NCBI GenBank assembly: GCA_020348985.1
Contig: CP070761.1
Location: 3,065,494-3,129,493, forward strand
Reading direction: 5' to 3'
DNA: 64,000 nucleotides
Origin: Candidatus Thorarchaeota archaeon
Lineage (GTDB): Archaea; Asgardarchaeota; Thorarchaeia; Thorarchaeales; Thorarchaeaceae
The translations under genes were made by a program, and so were the position numbers. This document shows positions 43,867 to 56,818 of the stretch, in pieces. Each line of letters starts with the position of its first letter. The first letter of the stretch is position 1. The notes beneath the pieces were generated by a model that saw only the letters and a program-made list of their open reading frames with translations, was not told the origin of the DNA and ran no database searches.

Positions 43867-46800
43867 TTAGCCAGCTGACGAAACAAAATCCTCGGCAAGA
43901 ATCTTGTCAAGTGTCTTAACGATGCGGTCGGCGTCGATCTTGGAGAAGACCAGAGAGGGTTTGATTATCAGAACATTGTGGTGGATTCCGTCAGAACCGA
44001 TCATAATCTGATTGTCCTTCATGCGCTCAGCAATGTACCTCGCCTCTTCGGCAGCGGGCTTCAATGAATCACGATCTCCTACTAGCTCAACGCCGATGAA
44101 AAGCCCAGAACCTCTGACATCACCAATGATGCTGTGCCTATCGCCCAATTGACTCAATTGCTCGATAAGATAACTTCCTGTGGAGTGAGCATTTTCCTGC
44201 AGTGCTTCTTCTTCGAGGACATCTAGAACAGTAAGTCCCACAGCACACGACACAGTATTGCCTCCTGTGGTGCTGAACCATTCCATACCCGCTCCAAGCG
44301 ATTCTGCTATCTCACGTGTAGTTATGACTGCACCAATGGGATGTCCATTGCCTATTGGTTTGCCAAGAGTGACTATGTCTGGAACGACACCCTGTGTCTC
44401 AAAACCCCAGAAGTGAGTTCCAACTCGTCCGAAACCAACTTGGACTTCATCCACAATGCAGATACCGCCTGCTTCTCGAACATGTCGAAACGCGCTCTTC
44501 AGGTACTGTTCTGGAAAAACAATCTGTCCTCCACAAGACATGATTGACTCACAAAGGAAGGCCGCAGGCTTCCTCCCACTTGCAGCCAGTTCATCGACTA
44601 TCTCCTTCAAATCTGTCGCGTACTTCTTTCCGGCTTCCGAGTCTGATCTTCGATAAGGTCCCCTGAATGTGTCTGGAATCCGCACCTTATGGACATGTGG
44701 TGGCATGCCTTTCCCACCAGGGCCCTCGGACTTGTACGGACTCAGACCAACCAAAGCTTCCGTGTTGCCATGATAGGCCCCTTCGATGACAATCATGTCC
44801 TCATTGCCCGTGTAGGCTCTGGCTAGTCTAAGTGCCAGCTCGTTTGCCTCGCTTCCGCTGTTCACGAAAAAGCAGATACTCAGTGGCATTGGGAACTTGG
44901 TACACAGCTTCTCAGCATACTCGACGAGTGCCTCATGTATGTAGCGTGTGTTGGTGTTTAGGACTGCCGCTTGCCTCTGCAATGCTTCGACGACTTTGGG
45001 GTGGCTGTGGCCAACAATCGGCACATTGTTTCTAGCGTCGAGGTATGCTCTGCCGTCCTTGTCGTAGAGATACTGCATGTATCCCTCTACAATCTCAATC
45101 GGCTCCTCGTACATAAGGCTGAGAGAACTACTCAGCCTCTGACTCCTGATATCCAAGATTTCGTCGCGGCCTAGCCTTTCAACTCGCACGGGCTTATCGG
45201 GGAGTCCAAGAATGACGTTGGGGTCCGGCGAAATGCTCTTCCAAAGCTGTCTCCGGTTTGGACTTGCGGCTCCGAAAAAGTCACCTTCTCTCCCAATCAT
45301 GTCAACAATGACCTGAAAGTGAAGATGTGATGGCCAGCCACCATTGGTCGGGTATTCGCCCACTTCTCCTATCTTGTCCCCTTTCCTGATCGAACTTCCT
45401 TTGACTAGGTTATCAATCGAGTCCAGAGAGAGATGAGCGTACAGAGTGTAGAACTTCAGATCAGAATTCTCGATGCTATGCTCAACAACAATCGTGGGAC
45501 CGTTGTCAAGTGGAGAGTCATTGTTTCTGAAACTGTGAATCGTTCCATCAAGCGGAGCAAATAGCGGTGTTCCGGATTCAAGAAACAGGTCAATAGCCAA
45601 GTGCACTGTCCTTGATTCGGGGCCATCGATTCCCATCAAAGAGTACTGATCTCCGGCATAGATGAGCCGGGCCTCGTCATATCGTCCGACACCATATTCC
45701 GCCAGTTCGTCTCTCAGCCGAGCCTCAATCATTCTGCTCCACTTCTCAATTTCCATCAGGTCGCCTAGGGTGCCAAATTCAGTGGAGCCTGCAGACAGGT
45801 CAAAGACCACATGAGGTGTCGAAGAAAGGTCAAAGTCAACGATAGACCCAATCTTCTTGCGGTTCTTCTTCAACCACTCAGTTACCTCGCTACTTTTCTG
45901 GCATGGAACGAGGTCACAAGCATCACGGAAGGTGTATGTAACAAGCCGCGGGTTTACTACTCTGAGCTTCTCGAGAGCCTCCCACGCCATCTCCTCACTT
46001 ATTCTGAGGTATTCGTTTTGGGGCTCCAACTTGCTTTGGTAGGCCGCAATGGCCACTGTCATTGTCAACCTTGTACAAATCATGTAGAAGAGAAGGTCGA
46101 TTTCATGTTCTTCTAAAGGAAACACTGAATGATAGCCCTTGACTACTTCCGCTGCAGCAGCGATTGGATCTGCATGACCAAGAACTGCGTAGGCAATCGC
46201 TATGGCCAGCTCGAAAACAGTGTGACTGAATACAAGGTCGCCGAAGTCGACTACACCAAACCGGGATCGATTGCCAGGTACAGCCCAATCAACTATGACA
46301 TTGTAATCATTGAAGTCATTGTGAACAACGCTCTTTCTCAAAGTCGATAGAGCCGGCTTGACTCTGTTTTCGTATTCACTAAGGAAGTGTTTGACGATTC
46401 CTTGCTGAACGGGGTCCCCTATATCCCCAACGTGTTTTGGGATTACTTGGTCCGCGTTCTTCATGTCCCAATATAAGTCCCTGTGAGCTGCAGGGTGTTT
46501 GAAATCTTGAAGCGCCTTCGTCACTGAACCTATGAATTCACCAAACTCACGGAGCAATTTCGTCGAATGAGGATTGACCTTTGCATACACTTTCCCAGGA
46601 ACATAACGAAGCAGTCTCACCATGTAGTGGTTTCCCTGTGGATCGTCGACAATCTCAATGTACCTGCCTTCCTTGCTTTTCGTGGGTGTTGGGCATAGCA
46701 TCAATCCTGTTTTGGCAACAATGTGGAGCATTGCGGAGTTTTGTGATTCGATTATGTCGCGTTCATCTGAAAGTGCTGAGAACTTCAGGACAAACTCCTC

Positions 46801-46953
46801 ACCCGAGTCTGTCCTTACGTAGTAGTTGCGGTCTCGCTCGCTTGGCAGTTCTCTCAAGTCGCCAACTGCAGAGAAAATGTCTTCTGCCACTTTGGCTGCT
46901 TCCTGTTTGTCGAACCGTGGGCGAAAGGCGTCTTTTGTTGACATGTGAGTCAT
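43867..46953 (-). CDS. Fusion of APH/hydroxylysine-kinase-like domain, M23-like domain and class III PLP aminotransferase/phospho-lyase
   Basis: [19 protein letters not shown]; HLAID, HLH; [29 protein letters not shown]. Confidence 0.92.
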
Positions 46954-49705: not shown

Positions 49706-51706
49706 TCAGGTGACAGATTCCTTTCTTACAACATATACGTCAGACCTAGGAACATACGCACCTTTCAGGTATCGTCTGAGAAGAGACAACGTCGCGTTTC
49801 TTCGAAGCCCTCGTTCTCGTGCAAAGGAAGTCACTCGGATCACTCGTTCTTCTTGTGCGTAATCGCGCAGGCCTTCAACCCATATCCCGTCTACAATCAC
49901 GCCAGCTTCTTCGACCACGAACTCGTTGTCTCCGACATGTGGTTGAATCACACCAAGAACTTCTTCAGGAACTAGGGCGAGTCCCCTTGCCGTCGCATCG
50001 AAATCGAAGACACCTTTCTTCGTAAGCGTCTGCTTCATTAGTTGAACCATGACTCGAGGTGCAACAAGCTTCCCTCTCGCAGACTTCAACGCATCAAGAT
50101 GCATTCGGTCAACAAGTCGTTCCAGATCTGCAACGTCCAGACCTCGTTCTTCAGCTATCTGCGGTGGGTCAAGAACCCCTTTCTTGGCGAAGATGGCACG
50201 CATTTCCTGCTCAATCTTCTGCGCTGGTATTAGCGCGCCTTCGCCATCAATGAAAGCGTCTACTTGAACCTGCGACAGAATGGCTTCTGCAACGCGAACT
50301 TCAATTTCGAACTCCTTTGCTAGAGTCCCCGGATCAACTAGCTCACCCTTGGCGACTTGGCTTTCAATTCGCTTCCTTATCCAAGTTAATGAGAGATGAT
50401 CCCCTGAAGGAGTAGCCACTGTCTTTAGGCCGAAACGTTCAAGCAGCATACGAAGTTGTATGCCAGCAAGACTCCAAGTCTCCTCAACCTCGTTTGCTCT
50501 GATGAATCCTGATTCCTTTATCGAGTCAAGGAGCCATCTCCTGAACTCTTGTAGTGATATGTATCTGCCATCAGACCCCTTCCTCAGTCCTGGAATCTGA
50601 CCGATCAGCTGCTTGATTAGTGTTGCACTGACGCCGAGAGCTTTTGCAGTCTCGTCTGCTATGACCATCCCACTCAGTGCAAGGTCTTCTTTGATCCTGT
50701 CAGTTAGATATGTCAGCAGCACAACAGAGCCATAATCTGTTCGGACAAACTGATGCCCCGCTTTTCGGATATGGCGGAGAATCTCTGATTCGCCAACGTG
50801 CAGCCGTTCTGTCTCCTTGTCGAGCTCCAGAATTCCTTCCGCCATTATCTTCTCTATTATGTCCCCCTCAAGAAGATGTGCAGGCACCAAACGGCCATCA
50901 GTTGTCTCAATCATCTTCCAACCAAATCGACGAATCGAATTGTGAATATCTCGGGAATCTAGGTCCAGTCGAGTCGCAAGTGACTCAGGCGCGAGAAACC
51001 CTTCCTGCTCAATTCCCTTCTCAAGAGCCCTCTGCAACCAATTGTAAGAAACAAGTTGACCTAGTCTTGTCTCGACTAGGTTCCAGCCCCAAGTCATAAC
51101 GAGGCGAACCAATTCATCTCTCTTTACCCTTATCCTTTGTGACTCCGAAGTAACATCAATCCGTCCATGTAGTTCAAGGAATTCTTTGAGACGATCCTTT
51201 AGTTCAGGAACAAGAATGAAATCTCCGTCTTCGGTTCTTACAACATCAAGCCCCTCGCTCCTGCAGACAGCTTCGACAATCTCTACAATCTCGGATTCGG
51301 TTAAATCCCATCTACTTGATTCACCAGAAACATGAACTGAGCCACTTTCCATTAGTTGAGAACGAAGACGATCTGTGAGCAATGGCGCTGAAATCACAGT
51401 GCTACCAGAGTAGCTCAGAATTGCATTCCTGCTTGCTTTGATAACGCTCTTCATAGCTGACATATCGAGGCCTTTCTTGTGCAGTGTCCTTGAAAGTACC
51501 TCAATTGATATAGAAGGTTGGATTACGAGAATTCTGTCGAGATGTTCGATCTGCAGCCTCCTAACTCTGGAAGTCCAAGCATAGAGACCGGCTCCGATGC
51601 CCCCTAGAATCAGGAGTGCAGTCAGCATTCCCCAGAAGGGGTCCGCTAGGAACTCGAATTGAAGTAGCGCACTCTTTACTGCGCTACTAGAGAGTGATTC
51701 GTTCAC
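49706..51706 (-). CDS. N-terminally membrane-anchored protein of 11 tandem winged-helix repeats (DDRGK1/UFL1-like)
   Basis: TM at aa ~24-44 followed by RVRR; ~55-aa repeats, each three helices plus a T/S-x-D-G-type beta-hairpin. Confidence 0.7.
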   Translation of the reverse strand: MNESLSSSAVKSALLQFEFLADPFWGMLTALLILGGIGAGLYAWTSRVRRLQIEHLDRILVIQPSISIEVLSRTLHKKGLDMSAMKSVIKASRNAILSYSGSTVISAPLLTDRLRSQLMESGSVHVSGESSRWDLTESEIVEIVEAVCRSEGLDVVRTEDGDFILVPELKDRLKEFLELHGRIDVTSESQRIRVKRDELVRLVMTWGWNLVETRLGQLVSYNWLQRALEKGIEQEGFLAPESLATRLDLDSRDIHNSIRRFGWKMIETTDGRLVPAHLLEGDIIEKIMAEGILELDKETERLHVGESEILRHIRKAGHQFVRTDYGSVVLLTYLTDRIKEDLALSGMVIADETAKALGVSATLIKQLIGQIPGLRKGSDGRYISLQEFRRWLLDSIKESGFIRANEVEETWSLAGIQLRMLLERFGLKTVATPSGDHLSLTWIRKRIESQVAKGELVDPGTLAKEFEIEVRVAEAILSQVQVDAFIDGEGALIPAQKIEQEMRAIFAKKGVLDPPQIAEERGLDVADLERLVDRMHLDALKSARGKLVAPRVMVQLMKQTLTKKGVFDFDATARGLALVPEEVLGVIQPHVGDNEFVVEEAGVIVDGIWVEGLRDYAQEERVIRVTSFARERGLRRNATLSLLRRYLKGAYVPRSDVYVVRKESVT

Positions 51707-54626
51707 TTCTCAGCCTCTTCTTGTAGATCTCCATCCCAACTATTGCAGGCAATGAAAGCACGATACATACAATCCAATCGAACAACGTCAAAGGTATGAA
51801 GTAGAAGTGAAGGCCATACGTTGACAGGATTTCTGGGACCAGTGGGTGATACATAAGGAGGAAGTGAGCCAGATATATCAGACCCAAGAAGGGTACAAAT
51901 CTACCGGTGCCAGGTTCACGCAGACTGGATGTTATTGGCATGTTGATTCTTCTGATGATCAGCACAAGAGTGCTCTCGACAAGAAGAATCACTGTCAAAA
52001 GCATCACTGCAGCCTTTGCTTCATAGACCGTTCTTCCTGCCTCAAATGGCTCTACTACTGGATAGAATCCTTCGAGATTCTCAGGATAGATGCCGACAAT
52101 TCCGAACCAGCCAGTATAGGTTAGGAGGTAAGCCATACCGGCTCCAAGTGCCATTAGAATGACGTTTATGGCCATGAAACGAGCCATCTGCTTAGTGATT
52201 ATTTCTTCACTATCGCGGGGTTTCTCTTTCATTGCCCCAGGTGATGTTTTGTCGAAGACAAGTGCCAATCCAGGGAACGAGTGCGTTGTGACTACTAAAT
52301 AGAGTGCTTGCCAAGTTGTTAGAAGATTGATGACTTCGGGAAGAATGAACATGGCCCCGAAGAATATGATGCTCTCGAATAGGTTGATGGCTACGTAGAA
52401 GTAGATCATCATTCGAATCTTGGTGAAAAGACCACGACCCTGGTGGACTCCGGTCACAATAGACGCAAAACTGTCATCAGTAATGACGAGGTCCGCGGCC
52501 TCTTTGGCAACATCGGTACCTGTTATTCCCATCGCGATTCCAGCATCACTCATCGCCAAGGCAAGCGCGTCATTAACCCCGTCCCCGGTCATTGCAACTA
52601 CTTTCTTCTGATTCTGATATCTTTCGACGATGACCTGTTTGTGTGCGGGATTAACTCTTGCGAACACGTTGACCTTCGCAAACTCGTGCTCTGTTAGCGT
52701 CTCTATCTGGCCTCCTTCGACTACTAGCGAACCGGGTTCGTGGATTCCAAGATTCTCAGCGATTGTCTTCGCAGTGGCTGAAGAGTCGCCAGTGATCATC
52801 ACGACATTGATTCCTGCACTGTGACAGGCACTCACTGCTTCTTTGACTCCTTCGCGTGGAGGATCGACAATGCATACAAAGCCCAAGTAGATTAGATCCT
52901 TCTCCACCTTGTCCCTTATGTTCGCCCCAGATGGTATCTCATCTAGGCGTTGATAGGCAAAAGAGATGACGCGGTACCCTCGTGCAGCAAATCCGTTTAC
53001 CTGTGCTTGAATTCGTTTGGCGTCGTTTTCGTCCATTGCGGAAGGTCTCCTGCCTCCATTCATCAAAGCACAGCGGGGCAAGAGGACTTCAGTTGCACCC
53101 TTGGTAAACACCACAAGTTTCTTACCGTCTTTGCATACCTTTGACATTCGTTTGAGTTCGGATTCGAATGGAAACTCCTTCTCGATCTTGTACTTCTCTC
53201 GAAGCTCCTCTTCATTTACACCACTCTTCCTAAATAGGGTAAGAAGAGCGGCATCTGTTGGATCACCAATCGGAATCCAATTCACGCCTTGATCCGGGAT
53301 CTCTCTTCGCTCAATCTCCGAATCGTTGTTGATGCCCCCATTGGCTATTATGCGATGAAGTCCCTTCCATCCAAGAACATCGGTCACTTTGACTGCTTCG
53401 CTTGGTTTGAAGAGATCCAAGGAAGAGTCGTCTGGAAGACGAAGAATCTCCCCTATGGGCTCGTACCCTTCACCTGTAACATGATAGAGGTTCTCAGTAT
53501 CCCAGATGAACTTCACCATCATCTGATTCTTGGTCATCGTCCCAGTCTTGTCTGATGCAATGACGCTGACCCGACCCAGGCTCTCGACTGCTGATAGATC
53601 ACGAATAATGACTCCTTTCCTTGCCATTGCTAGGACACCAGTTAGAAGCACAATAGTCGTTAGCAAGGGTATGTTGATTGGCATGATAGTCATTGCTTTC
53701 GTTATACCTATGCTCAGAGTCTCAGCAATTATATTGATTCCGAGATCTATCGGATTGCCAAAGAGAAACGGAACACCGAAGACCGGCCACAAGACAGAGA
53801 GAATCATTAGGAATACTGCTGCTGTGGCGAGATACTTTGCAAGAAGATTCACCTTCTTCCGCAACGGGATGTCGCCCGTGTTCAGTTGCTCCAGTTCTCC
53901 CTGAATCTTTCCAATCTCCGTGCGTCCACCCGTCTCCGTGGTGACGAAAGTCGCTGTGCCTGTTGCAACATACGTTCCAAAGAATACGATGTTAAACATG
54001 TCTGTGAGTGGAATATCCCGTTTGAGTACAGGATCACTCTCCTTGTTTACTGGTATGCTTTCACCGGTCAATGATGCCTCGTTGGTAGTCAGATTTGTAC
54101 ATGTGATAATTCTACCATCTGCTGGTATTCTGTCCCCTTGTTCTAGTTTGACTATATCTCCAGGGACTATTTCGTCAGGAGGTATGGCCGCCTCGCTTCC
54201 GTTGCGAATAACACGTGCCTCACCCGCAGAGAGTTTCTCCAGGGCCTCAAGCTTCTTCTGTGCCCTATATTGCTGAAAGATTGCCACAAGAGCATTGATG
54301 AGCACAACACCCAACCAAATAGTTGCTTGTGCTAGCTCATTGTTGGCAGTTGGAAACATGTATGCGAGTCCGACCAATGCAAAAGAGCTGACCAGGTATA
54401 TCGTAATGAGCCAATTCATTATAGGTGCCAAATACACCTGCCAGAATGTACCCTTGATCTTTGGAATTGTGTTTGGCCCGTATTTGCTGGTTCGAGAGGA
54501 GACATCACTGCTAGATAGGCCGTTCTCGGCGCTAGCTGAGAAGACCTGAAGGACCTCTTCAATAGACATGGCTTGATACTGACTCTCAGCAGATTCTGAT
54601 TCAGTGATGGCGTCGCTTTCAGACAA
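51687..54626 (-). CDS. P-type ATPase, P2A-like scaffold with non-canonical ion-binding site
   Basis: LTGES, SDKTGT, FESELKRMS, KGATE, DPPR, MITGD, FARVNP, MTGDGVNDA; M4 reads PINIP. Confidence 0.93.
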   Translation of the reverse strand: MSESDAITESESAESQYQAMSIEEVLQVFSASAENGLSSSDVSSRTSKYGPNTIPKIKGTFWQVYLAPIMNWLITIYLVSSFALVGLAYMFPTANNELAQATIWLGVVLINALVAIFQQYRAQKKLEALEKLSAGEARVIRNGSEAAIPPDEIVPGDIVKLEQGDRIPADGRIITCTNLTTNEASLTGESIPVNKESDPVLKRDIPLTDMFNIVFFGTYVATGTATFVTTETGGRTEIGKIQGELEQLNTGDIPLRKKVNLLAKYLATAAVFLMILSVLWPVFGVPFLFGNPIDLGINIIAETLSIGITKAMTIMPINIPLLTTIVLLTGVLAMARKGVIIRDLSAVESLGRVSVIASDKTGTMTKNQMMVKFIWDTENLYHVTGEGYEPIGEILRLPDDSSLDLFKPSEAVKVTDVLGWKGLHRIIANGGINNDSEIERREIPDQGVNWIPIGDPTDAALLTLFRKSGVNEEELREKYKIEKEFPFESELKRMSKVCKDGKKLVVFTKGATEVLLPRCALMNGGRRPSAMDENDAKRIQAQVNGFAARGYRVISFAYQRLDEIPSGANIRDKVEKDLIYLGFVCIVDPPREGVKEAVSACHSAGINVVMITGDSSATAKTIAENLGIHEPGSLVVEGGQIETLTEHEFAKVNVFARVNPAHKQVIVERYQNQKKVVAMTGDGVNDALALAMSDAGIAMGITGTDVAKEAADLVITDDSFASIVTGVHQGRGLFTKIRMMIYFYVAINLFESIIFFGAMFILPEVINLLTTWQALYLVVTTHSFPGLALVFDKTSPGAMKEKPRDSEEIITKQMARFMAINVILMALGAGMAYLLTYTGWFGIVGIYPENLEGFYPVVEPFEAGRTVYEAKAAVMLLTVILLVESTLVLIIRRINMPITSSLREPGTGRFVPFLGLIYLAHFLLMYHPLVPEILSTYGLHFYFIPLTLFDWIVCIVLSLPAIVGMEIYKKRLRSERITL

Positions 54627-54856
54627 GATCCTTCCCTCGTCTTCTAGTGGTCTGCTTCAGTCTCCTCACAGATAAATGGTCTCGTTACAAACCCATCTGA
54701 TAGAGAGTACGTTCGAATTGCCCTGCGGGCCTTTTGAAAGTTTTCAGCACAAAGGAGGTGGACCGAAAGGTCTCAAATGCATCGGTCGATAGGTTCATCT
54801 TAGTCAAAAATGAGAGCTTATTGCCGCGCGCGGTACAACACAATCTGGTGCAGACA

Positions 54857-56818
54857 ATGTCGTACTACTGGGAATATCAGCCGACACAAAGCAAGCCCCC
54901 GTCGTCTAGCATCAGAATCATCGGCGTCATTGTGATTCTGATGTTGATAGTCGCCACAGGTCTGGTCATGCTAATCCCTGATTTTCGCGGGGGTGCTCAA
55001 CCTGGCGAAGAAGTACGAGTTGCTGTTGTAGATTCAGGTGTCAACTCAGACTTTGCCCTTATAGGACGAATCGTGGCTGAAAGGAGCTTTGTGTCAAGGG
55101 AGAATGGGTATGACTTCAATGAACCATCTCCGACTGACAGTGATCCCGAGGACGTCTCTCATGGAACTGTTGTGGCAACCACGATAGTGCAGAACAGTAA
55201 CAACGCCATGATTGTGAACGCAAAGGTCCTGGATTCATCAGGTTTTGCTACAACTCTTGGAATAATCGCTGCCATCGAGTGGGCAGTCGAACAGAATTGC
55301 AGTGTCATCAACTTGAGCCTTGGAGGAGCCCCCACCTATGGAGACCCTCTTGAGGACAGTGTGGAATGGGCGTTCTCAAAAGGTGTTGTAGTTGTGGCTG
55401 CAGCTGGCAATGACGGTCAAAACGGAGTGTCTGGAACATCAATTCATTCTCCCAGCGTCCATCAGCACGCACTGAGTGTCGGCGGGTTAGATGAGCAAGG
55501 GGCTCCGGCATACTATACGAGTATGGGCCCAACTCGATCCCGAAGCTTGAAACCAGACATTAGCGCCCAAGGATTCACTCAGACAACAACGGCAATCTAC
55601 TACGGCACAAGTTTCGCGTCCCCGAAGGTCGCCGCCGCCGCAGTTGAGCTGATTGTCTTCTGTAAACAGAACGAGATTATGTACTCTCCAGGTTCTATAA
55701 TGACAGCACTGCTTGCAGGTGCTACGCCCCTTCCATATTCATCCTATCTCGTTGGAGCTGGGAGACTTGACCTCCAAGCCTCCAAGTTGATCATGCTACA
55801 AAACTCAGTTGATGGAGGGCTGCCCCAGATCACTTTTGCACTCCCGGGAACGCTTCCATTTGATTTTGAGAGACTTTTCTATGGAGACTCTTACCAATTC
55901 AACATCCATTTGCTGACGTCAGGGTTCACAGAGTACGATATTGAGGTGACGAGCGCGACTCCCGAGATTTTCGAAATCCAGGCAAGTGTTACTCTGAATC
56001 AAAGCGACTTCGTTCCTTTGACCCTCAACATCCCCGCCGATGGTTTGTCCATTGTACAGGGACAGATTGATTTCGTGTCCCAAGATTATGGGAACTCAAG
56101 TGTCGAGTTTGAAGCTCAGATACACCACTCAAATGCCAGGGTTGCATTCGACATAAGCCATACCGGGTGGTCAATCGACTCATCCTATGGTCAATTCAGA
56201 GCGTTCTATGAGCTCCTTGTCGAGAACGATATATCGGTTAACGAGATTCGTGAAGGCACTGACATCACATCAGGCTTCCTTGACGAGTTTGATGCCGTCT
56301 TCATTCTGGACCCATGTGCTTGGAATCTAGATGAATCAAACCCTGCAAACGTTTCTGAGTTCTCGATTCCGTTTAGTCCTGAAGAAACTCAAGCTTACAA
56401 GGATTACTTTGAAAATGGCGGAGGCATTCTTGTCGCCGGTCTTTCGAACAACACGCTTGATATCCGATCCCTCAATACGTTCCTCAATTGGACCGGATTC
56501 GAGTTCGGTTTCAGTAGCATTTCTAATCAGGGAGACACAGTGGAAGTGACCAATATTACCGCACATGCGGTGACAGTCGGAGTAGATAGCTTCGACTTTT
56601 CTGGCGCACCAATAACCGAGTTAGGCAATGGTACAGCGCTCGCTTTCTACAATGGTAGACCAGTACTTGGAAGTCTTGAAGGAAGTCAGGGCGGCAGGAT
56701 GATTGCAACAGGCACGAACTTCTTCCTCGACAATTGGGGATTGAATGGCATGTACGATTCAGACGACAATGACAATCTTACCGTCAGGATTGCCCTCTGG
56801 TTGTCTGGACTGCTCTAG
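54857..56818 (+). CDS. S8 subtilase with N-terminal anchor and Site-1-protease-like C-terminal domains
   Basis: VVDSG, HGT, AAGND, GTSFASP; RVAFDISH GIFT-like domain; start chosen at ATG 54857 within ORF 54734..56818. Confidence 0.88.
   Translation: MSYYWEYQPTQSKPPSSSIRIIGVIVILMLIVATGLVMLIPDFRGGAQPGEEVRVAVVDSGVNSDFALIGRIVAERSFVSRENGYDFNEPSPTDSDPEDVSHGTVVATTIVQNSNNAMIVNAKVLDSSGFATTLGIIAAIEWAVEQNCSVINLSLGGAPTYGDPLEDSVEWAFSKGVVVVAAAGNDGQNGVSGTSIHSPSVHQHALSVGGLDEQGAPAYYTSMGPTRSRSLKPDISAQGFTQTTTAIYYGTSFASPKVAAAAVELIVFCKQNEIMYSPGSIMTALLAGATPLPYSSYLVGAGRLDLQASKLIMLQNSVDGGLPQITFALPGTLPFDFERLFYGDSYQFNIHLLTSGFTEYDIEVTSATPEIFEIQASVTLNQSDFVPLTLNIPADGLSIVQGQIDFVSQDYGNSSVEFEAQIHHSNARVAFDISHTGWSIDSSYGQFRAFYELLVENDISVNEIREGTDITSGFLDEFDAVFILDPCAWNLDESNPANVSEFSIPFSPEETQAYKDYFENGGGILVAGLSNNTLDIRSLNTFLNWTGFEFGFSSISNQGDTVEVTNITAHAVTVGVDSFDFSGAPITELGNGTALAFYNGRPVLGSLEGSQGGRMIATGTNFFLDNWGLNGMYDSDDNDNLTVRIALWLSGLL

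Follow-up and report, generated by a model that had tools for sequence, protein, structure and literature searches.

A putative P2-derived P-type ATPase subtype with a rewritten transport site in Asgard archaea

A complete P-type ATPase gene in a Thorarchaeota genome

We analysed a stretch of 64,000 nucleotides from a Candidatus Thorarchaeota archaeon (assembly GCA_020348985.1, contig CP070761.1, positions 3,065,494 to 3,129,493), called the window in this text, and in it a gene for a P-type ATPase whose transport-site residues depart from those of the Ca2+ pumps that it most resembles. The gene lies at 51687-54626 on the minus strand and is an uninterrupted open reading frame (ORF) of 979 codons. 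Its TTG start at 54626 is credible: the MSxxDAI N-terminus that follows lies upstream of the first internal Met and is conserved in orthologues. The 979 amino acid product contains the Pfam domains Cation_ATPase_N, E1-E2_ATPase, Cation_ATPase, Hydrolase and Cation_ATPase_C. With 264 bits on TIGR01494 (P-type ATPase superfamily, HAD-IC; cut-off 62.3) it clearly belongs to the superfamily. Judging by its residues, it is a functional P-type ATPase that belongs to a separate, old clade. We refer to this clade as the Asgard 'P-x-N / M6-His' clade, which is a grouping defined here and not a named family.

The coordinates of each motif mentioned in an earlier note on this DNA were re-derived and then translated. 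The catalytic part of the gene, with the basis of each assignment in brackets, is as follows.

51687..54626, minus strand: complete P-type ATPase gene of the 'P-x-N / M6-His' clade, 979 amino acids, TTG start (stop-free translation, Pfam, AlphaFold2)
54057..54068, minus strand: TGES, the dephosphorylation motif of the A-domain, not the DGET of P4 type (translation)
53538..53552, minus strand: DKTGT phosphorylation motif, including D359 (translation)
53088..53102, minus strand: KGATE (translation)
52854..52865, minus strand: DPPR (translation)
52785..52793, minus strand: TGD (translation)
52569..52586, minus strand: GDGVND hinge motif, followed by the clade-specific Leu688 where canonical pumps have Pro (translation, clade-position scan)

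Residues of the transport site

The membrane segments (M1 to M8 below) carry the unusual part of the sequence.

54414..54434, minus strand: YLAPIMN in M1, with the clade-specific Y65 and P68 in place of the canonical F and Q (clade-position scan)
54270..54275, minus strand: 'QQ' at the end of M2 (Q118, Q119), where canonical P2A pumps have 'QE' (clade-position scan)
53667..53681, minus strand: PINIP (P316-P320) in the unwound part of M4 (HMMER alignment, translation)
52374..52385, minus strand: NLFE in M5, N748..E751, equivalent to the site I ligands N768/E771 of SERCA, which are kept (alignment, translation)
52272..52310, minus strand: QALYLVVTTHSFP in M6, including V778, T781 and H782 (alignment, translation)
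52281..52283, minus strand: the codon of His782 in M6 (translation)
51972..51986, minus strand: LLVES in M8, with E884 equivalent to E908 of SERCA, site I (alignment, translation)

Residues were mapped by HMMER alignments to Listeria LMCA1 and human SPCA1 and are given with the corresponding SERCA residue numbers. In M4, 'amtimpinipll' aligns over 'avaaipealssi' of LMCA1 and 'avaaipeglpiv' of SPCA1, and PINIP falls over PEALS and PEGLP, respectively. The M5 stretch 'fyvainlfe' lies over 'ylfagnlga' (AINLFE over AGNLGA). In M6, 'qalylvvtthsfpgla' is placed over 'qllfinlvndslpaia', with LYLVVTTHSFP over LLFINLVNDSLP. In SERCA numbering, the changes are E309 to I317, G310 to N318, N796 to V778 and D800 to H782, while N768 (N748), E771 (E751), T799 (T781) and E908 (E884) are kept. 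The ligands that typify P2A pumps are missing accordingly: there is no Glu of an M4 PEGL(P) motif and no Asn or Asp in M6 (N796, D800). The earlier note had described an ATPase with all catalytic motifs intact that had exchanged E309 for Ile, N796 for Val and D800 for His and had retained N768/E771, T799 and E908. Both parts of this description were confirmed, the former by the translated motifs and the latter by the alignments.

Site II of SERCA consists of E309 and N796 together with D800, and site I of N768, E771, T799, D800 and E908. In the pump studied here, both ligands that belong to site II only (E309 and N796) have become hydrophobic residues. A His, itself invariant, stands in for the bridging Asp (D800), and N318 is a newly gained polar residue beside the break in M4. 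We found no conserved Arg or Lys in the membrane core that could act as a built-in counter-charge in the style of P3A or H,K pumps.

An AlphaFold2 model made from an alignment of 31 clade sequences had a mean predicted local distance difference test (pLDDT) score of 81.5. In this model, M4 is unwound at residues 315-318 and M6 is broken at 782-783, the places where the SERCA helices unwind around the ion sites. Foldseek matched the model to full-length SERCA, SPCA1 and LMCA1 (E ~1e-58, TM-score up to 0.79). The Pfam and Foldseek results agree in giving a SERCA-like fold with ten transmembrane (TM) segments and both the N- and C-terminal cation-ATPase domains, as in P2A pumps.

Conservation of the signature

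A word-index search returned 120 relatives with 64-89% identity, giving 121 sequences with the query. Where these close relatives are named, they are labelled Thorarchaeota or Promethearchaeota. MPINIPLL (with P316, I317 and N318), N748, E751, H782 and E884 were each present in 121/121 sequences, a degree of conservation that far exceeds chance.

An exhaustive search of representatives at 50% identity added ~37 more clusters with 33-63% identity and the same pattern, in which M2 ends in 'QQ', M4 reads P-[I/V/F/W/L]-N-[I/L/F]-[P/V], M5 has N..E, and M6 and M8 carry His and Glu, respectively. P316 was found in 37/37 representatives and N318 in 34/37, and residue 317 was hydrophobic in 37/37; the counts for the other positions were 34/34 (E751), 32/33 (H782) and 31/33 (E884). 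The residue at the N796 position was frequently Tyr or Phe. Below ~500 bits, the matches change abruptly to canonical PEGLP, N..D and 'QE'. The only representative without the His, P0141, also lacks N318, E884 and the KGA motif. This joint loss of N318, H782 and E884 fits the idea that these residues act as one unit.

The His at the D800 position is found in 97% of the clade, compared with Asp in 92% of the canonical relatives, and H782 is the most invariant of the clade-specific residues. The clade-position scan also pointed to P68 in M1 (91% of the clade; Q in 92% of canonical pumps), Q119 at the end of M2 (86%; E in 95% of canonical pumps), Y65, and L688 after GDGVNDA, where canonical pumps have P. 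We define the clade by its monophyly together with an M2 that ends in QQ, P-[hydrophobic]-N-[ILF]-[PV] in M4, N..E in M5, a His at the D800 position of M6 and a Glu in M8, and the pump in the window shows all of these.

Among 36 genes taken from 14 Asgard families, the His, E751 and E884 occurred in 36/36, and one of the 14 families has PITIP or PISIP in M4. PINIP and the M6 His, whose spread among Asgard orthologues was a point raised in the earlier note, are therefore not peculiar to one sequence: both are found in 121/121 close relatives, and the His in 36/36 genes across the 14 families. The note had also thought of orthologues with a canonical PEGL/N/D, which would have spoken for private decay or a sequencing error. 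Instead, the signature is fixed across the clade, and we rejected both of these explanations on account of this invariance.

Phylogeny and subtype profiles

A FastTree phylogeny was built from 94 sequences: 30 from the clade, 50 representatives of canonical pumps, 10 further canonical pumps that carry names, the three other P-type ATPases of the genome of the window, and E. coli MgtA. A scan of the genome contigs for DKTGT plus GDGxND had matched at least 80 loci; the 80 listed were all canonical PEGLP pumps and were used only as named outgroups. All signature-bearing sequences fell into one clade with a support of 100. To this we add an IQ-TREE phylogeny of 48 sequences from which the signature columns (M2 end, M4, M5, M6 and M8) had been taken out. 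The clade was recovered here as well, with a Shimodaira-Hasegawa-like approximate likelihood ratio test (SH-aLRT) value of 80 for all 20 members and 97 for a core of 17. The nearest outsiders in both trees are prokaryotic PEGLP pumps. When rooted on MgtA or on the P1B pump, the clade groups with these pumps in a basal polytomy, in trees that contain no eukaryotic P2A-D, P3, P4 or P5 references. On this evidence the clade appears to be derived from, or sister to, prokaryotic P2A (PMR1/SERCA-like) pumps. It is not a recent duplicate of the genome's own Ca pumps, a possibility we rejected since both PEGL paralogues branch far away in both trees.

The best NCBIfam profile is the PMR1-type TIGR01522, but with 457.5 bits the pump is ~340 bits short of the cut-off of 798. 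Scores on the other profiles were 422 bits for the SERCA-type TIGR01116 (cut-off 703), 416.7 for the ENA-type TIGR01523 (cut-off 645, full-length match), 314.8 for the H+-type (P3A) TIGR01647 (cut-off 615), 241 for the heavy-metal P1B profile TIGR01525 (cut-off 346), 215.9 for the P5 profile TIGR01657 (cut-off 618) and 104.5 for the P4 profile TIGR01652 (cut-off 431), as well as 394, 368 and 317 bits for the PMCA, Na,K and MgtA types. The pump thus reaches none of the NCBIfam equivalog cut-offs. Eight diverse clade members scored 418-521 bits and likewise reached no subtype cut-off. Two controls, one a canonical pump from Asgard archaea and the other a PMR1-type pump from bacteria, passed the cut-off at 821 bits. 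On the P4 profile these controls reached 97-117 bits, and on the P5 profile 251-293 bits. The PINIP pump scores no higher than they do and thus shows no drift towards P4 or P5. The ratio of IID to IIA2 profile scores is 0.91 in the clade and 0.70 in canonical pumps; the clade does relatively better on IID, IIC and IIIA.

These results bear on the classification given in the earlier note. Its statement that the pump fits no standard subtype was borne out, for the window protein and for the eight further members. The name 'P2A-type' holds in the sense of descent from, or sisterhood to, prokaryotic P2A pumps as seen in the trees, but not in any stricter sense. The suggested intermediate towards non-metal or lipid cargo found no support: TGES is kept, the P4 and P5 scores do not exceed those of ordinary PMR1-type pumps, and the polar cluster is a classical cation-site set. 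A CDC50 gene was matched neither in this genome nor in the control genomes, in a search that had no positive control and is hence uninformative.

Some canonical PEGLP relatives (P0163, P0166, P0179, P0180, P0184 and others) are 1400-1700 amino acids long. In these, the ATPase takes up only the C-terminal half and is preceded by an extension of ~500-780 amino acids.

Distribution and paralogues

The host genome (3.16 Mb, a single contig) encodes four P-type ATPases: a CPC-type P1B pump, two canonical P2A-like pumps (PEGLV and PEGLP) and the PINIP pump. Since the two canonical PEGL pumps and the CPC pump are kept, the PINIP pump should serve an extra function and not be the Ca pump of the cell. 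The genome also has one CDF transporter and a sub-threshold VIT1-like match, neither of which separates the substrate hypotheses discussed below.

In the phylum of the window, 362 of 400 genomes had some P2-like match at E<=1e-100, and ~293 (counted from the table) had a best match at E<=1e-180. Every match at E<=1e-180 that we inspected carries the signature. The families without such a match include some with 95-100% complete genomes. Where names are available, the members come from Thor-, Loki-, Hel- and Odinarchaeota and 'Promethearchaeota', plus one metagenome-assembled genome (MAG) labelled Korarchaeota. The pump as query found nothing at E<=1e-165 in three other archaeal phyla, those to which a Woesearchaeota MAG, Halobacterium and Methanobacterium belong, in a sample of ~1,100 genomes, with the best two candidates per genome scored and Thermoproteota, bacteria and eukaryotes not covered. 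As far as sampled, the clade is apparently confined to Asgard archaea.

Genomes of this phylum often carry 2-5 copies. We could observe tandem pairs in two Asgard families, ~40-46% identical to the window protein and with the full signature in both copies. In a third family, genome G135 has three dispersed copies confirmed to bear the signature, among five matches at E<=1e-150. The tandem pairs, each with the signature in both copies, are located as follows.

L139:6989-13782, tandem pump pair
L140:6961-12895, tandem pump pair
L141:6998-12972, tandem pump pair
L160:6970-12866, tandem pump pair
L158:1187-7495, tandem pump pair

Genomic neighbourhood

The genes next to the pump in the window, and two genes found near its relatives, are listed here.

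54734-56818, plus strand: subtilase (Peptidase_S8), 694 amino acids, divergent, 108 bp from the pump and paired with it in 11/12 loci of the same family
49706-51706, minus strand: UFL1-like ORF, 666 amino acids, GTG start, overlap of 20 nt with the stop codon of the ATPase (weak match)
L134:6325-6897, L135:11369-11941, L137:6229-6813 and L138:5320-5916: gene with a molybdopterin-binding oxidoreductase domain (PF00174), ~190 amino acids
L139:10057-10863, minus strand: VTT-domain (DedA/TMEM41/VMP1-like) membrane protein between the tandem pumps of one Loki-type locus

In the Thor-type family, the order divergent subtilase, ATPase, panB is found in 11/12 loci. We rejected this order as a functional clue, since it is local synteny only and not conserved in the other Asgard families. 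The ORF at 49706-51706 shows a weak match to the winged-helix region of eukaryotic UFL1 (E3 UFM1-protein ligase 1; PF09743, E 1.7e-7; PDB 8b9x, E 2e-4). It lies between the ATPase and panB in the window and in 3/12 related Thor-type loci, and we dismissed it as a pump partner because so few of these loci have it at that position. The PF00174 gene occurs 0-1.6 kb from the pump in two Asgard families, on differing sides; it was also discarded as a clue, its homologue in the genome of the window being ~2.5 Mb away from the pump.

Pumps of distant families have unrelated neighbours (Lon protease, M29 peptidase, GNAT, RFC, a PMT-like glycosyltransferase, a VTT-domain protein). An all-against-all comparison of neighbours within <=5 kb at 31 loci from 14 families found no gene family common to more than two of these 14 families. 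The pump is a stand-alone gene whose context gives no substrate clue.

Elsewhere in the window, at 43867-46953 on the minus strand, we noticed a fusion of 1028 amino acids that joins an APH-type phosphotransferase, a Peptidase_M23 and a class-III aminotransferase domain. The combination is unusual and is conserved in related genomes (52% identity in L123).

Possible mechanism and substrate

The substrate is very probably something other than Ca2+. The pump would run through the ordinary E1/E2 phosphoenzyme cycle. Ca2+ site II appears to have been erased by the exchange of the M4 Glu for a bulky hydrophobic residue and of the M6 Asn for a hydrophobic one, whereas the site-I-like pocket would have been kept and re-tuned (E751, E884, H782, N748, N318). 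One small cation per cycle would pass through this single pocket, and H+ counter-transport, on the glutamates or the histidine, seems probable. The reading that only one site is left and that it serves a different ion follows from the pattern of changes: the ligands specific to site II are hydrophobic, the E771, E908 and N768 equivalents of site I are kept, Asp has become His, and N318 is new.

As for the ion, we tentatively favour a divalent transition metal (Mn2+, Fe2+, Co2+, Zn2+ or the like) that would be exported through this pocket, a proposal that we consider plausible and well short of probable. That the pump has one site, in which direction it works and what it moves are all inferred here. 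The ligand set N1O4-5 (His, two Glu, Asn) is typical of Mn2+, Fe2+, Co2+ and Zn2+ sites, and the two carboxylates would balance a charge of 2+. The P-type pumps known to have a transmembrane His ligand (P1B-4, CopB) are transition-metal pumps. Finally, the nearest profile is that of the PMR1-type, a lineage that also handles Mn2+. Several points weigh against a transition metal. Tandem and multiple paralogues all share the same ligand set, and metal pumps of differing specificity usually have differing ligands. The genome already contains a CDF transporter and a P1B pump, and no metal-sensing regulator was found beside the pump in any of the 14 families. A His flanked by Glu can carry protons too. 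ENA Na+/K+ pumps show the same losses (E309 and D800), and an alkali cation fits about equally well (PMC10779151).

A close rival, which we regard as only slightly less plausible, is that the pump moves a monovalent cation, either as an ENA-like Na+(/K+) exporter or as a H+ pump. Na+ would be bound by the oxygens of N318, N748, E751, E884 and the Thr residues of M6. For H+, the protonatable carrier would be H782 paired with E751/E884, a charge-swapped analogue of the Asp/Arg pair in P3A pumps, which likewise have Ile at the E309 position (PIAMP compared with PINIP). The Na+ variant has its model in ENA (IPASL, ENIAQ, TSGLP), which also does without the E309 and D800 carboxylates and whose M4 Pro is followed, two residues on, by a small polar one (PMC10779151). 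A monovalent cation would also suit the Asgard family with PITIP/PISIP, the relatively better IID, IIC and IIIA scores (IID/IIA2 0.91 against 0.70), the neutralisation of the E109 equivalent in the entry funnel to Gln, and the identical ligands in all paralogues. A gene that is near-universal, multi-copy and free of an adjacent regulator looks like a housekeeping ion pump. However, the most invariant clade-specific residue is a His, which binds Na+ or K+ poorly; the membrane core lacks the built-in counter-charge that a conserved Arg or Lys gives P3A and H,K pumps; and both the IID and IIIA cut-offs are missed. Moreover, Asgard archaea already possess an A-type ATPase for H+/Na+.

A pump that still binds Ca2+ (or Mg2+), at the site-I-like pocket and with altered affinity, would agree with the default database annotation (JGI labels the orthologues Ca2+-transporting ATPase), with the Ca2+ pumps found as best profile and structure matches, and with the retained E771, E908 and N768 equivalents. 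We nevertheless think it unlikely. As far as is known from work on SERCA, PMCA, SPCA and LMCA1, every characterised single-site Ca2+ pump keeps E309, N796 and D800 of site II, and all three are replaced here; the two canonical PEGL pumps of the genome presumably serve Ca2+, and the pump stays at least ~300 bits below all equivalog cut-offs for Ca pumps, which canonical Asgard pumps do reach. Still less probable is a cargo that is no metal (lipid head groups, polyamines or other organic cations) and that would pass a hydrophobic I317 gate and a His/Glu/Asn pocket in an Asgard counterpart of P4/P5 pumps. The hydrophobic residue at the E309 position is reminiscent of PISL in P4 pumps, Tyr or Phe is frequent at the N796 position, and polyamine-transporting P5B pumps use acidic and aromatic pockets. 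However, the pump has TGES and not DGET, N..E and not Lys in M5, and no PP(E/A)LP, and its P4/P5 scores are no higher than those of ordinary Ca pumps. The clade branches with prokaryotic P2A pumps, and CDC50 was not found, a weak argument given that the search had no positive control. In the improbable case that organic cations are handled, this would be an independent Asgard invention of 'large-substrate' P-type transport on a P2 scaffold. With three canonical ligands gone, one might finally think that the ATPase has decayed or no longer transports anything (as a pseudo-pump or sensor), or that the sequence is in error, but this is hardly credible: the catalytic motifs are intact, the frame is open, the replacement residues are invariant across hundreds of genomes and 14 families, and paralogues have been retained.

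Significance

P-type ATPase subtypes are defined by their transport-site residues. We know of no characterised subtype that has a site-I-like pocket alone or a His at the central M6 position, and on its residues the clade qualifies as a P2-derived subtype with a unique transport site. The database label 'Ca2+-transporting ATPase' is probably wrong. We found no description of a 'P-x-N / M6-His' clade in the full-text literature, a coverage that leaves out most subscription journals, and the clade is not mentioned in the 2023 Palmgren review of P-type ATPase subfamilies (PMC10654040). The Asgard transportome paper groups the Asgard P2 pumps as 'putative Ca2+ ATPase' (PMC7997004).

The clade is present, often in several copies, in most sampled lineages of the closest prokaryotic relatives of eukaryotes, and should be of interest to both the P-type ATPase and the Asgard fields. 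It is not an ancestor-like link to the eukaryotic P4/P5 pumps, and a flippase link is unsupported. Once its substrate is identified, the clade would extend the P2 scaffold by a further class of specificity and inform ion or metal homeostasis in anaerobic sediment organisms. It would also correct the transport inventories that are used for arguments on Asgard Ca2+ signalling (e.g. PMC7997004).

Comparison with known pumps

The likeness to P4 flippases is limited to the hydrophobic Ile after the M4 Pro (PISL compared with PINI). The clade has TGES, not DGET, and N..E instead of the M5 Lys, and is not part of P4. Neither is it part of P5, as it has MPINIP and lacks PP(E/A)LP. The heavy-metal pumps P1B-4 ('HEGT') and CopB ('CPH') use a transmembrane His (with Glu) as metal ligand, but they are a functional analogy only: they have 8 TM segments and CPx/SPC in M4, and the P1B pump of the same genome is a separate gene.

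P3A H+ pumps (AHA2, Pma1) have a P-I-x-x-P M4 in which Ile takes the place of E309. A single protonatable residue occupies the D800 position, and an Asn is conserved in M2. The window pump shares the P-I-x-x-P shape, the Ile, the single protonatable residue and the M2 Asn. However, P3A pumps need an M6 Asp (AHA2 D684) and an M5 Arg where the clade has His and Glu, and the clade falls outside P3A.

The ENA Na+/K+ pumps have IP(A/S)SL in M4, ENIAQ in M5 and TSGLP in M6, and the fungal ENA Na+ pumps provide a precedent for the loss of both E309 and D800 (PMC10779151). Like the fungal and bryophyte ENA (P2D) pumps, the clade has neutral residues at both site-II carboxylates, a small polar side chain at the second position past the Pro of M4, and the M5 Asn and M8 acid (PMC10779151). 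ENA pumps are eukaryotic and have Ser at the D800 position, in contrast to the His of the clade. The motifs PINIP and INLFE and the score below the TIGR01523 cut-off set the window pump apart from P2D.

The closest likeness is with the P2A pumps (LMCA1 6zhf/6zhh/9euq, SPCA1 8iwp/7yag, SERCA1/2; phmmer E 1e-119 to 1e-100). It extends to domain order, the 10-TM fold, the catalytic motifs, the unwinding of M4 and M6, N..E in M5 and the Glu in M8, and prokaryotic P2A pumps form the nearest branch in the trees. The differences here are E309 to Ile, G310 to Asn, N796 to Val and D800 to His, together with Q to P in M1, QE to QQ in M2 and GDGVNDAP to GDGVNDAL. Known single-site Ca2+ pumps (PMCA, SPCA, LMCA1) keep site II and lose site I. 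The clade is their mirror image, a point missed in the earlier note: it erases site II and keeps site I.

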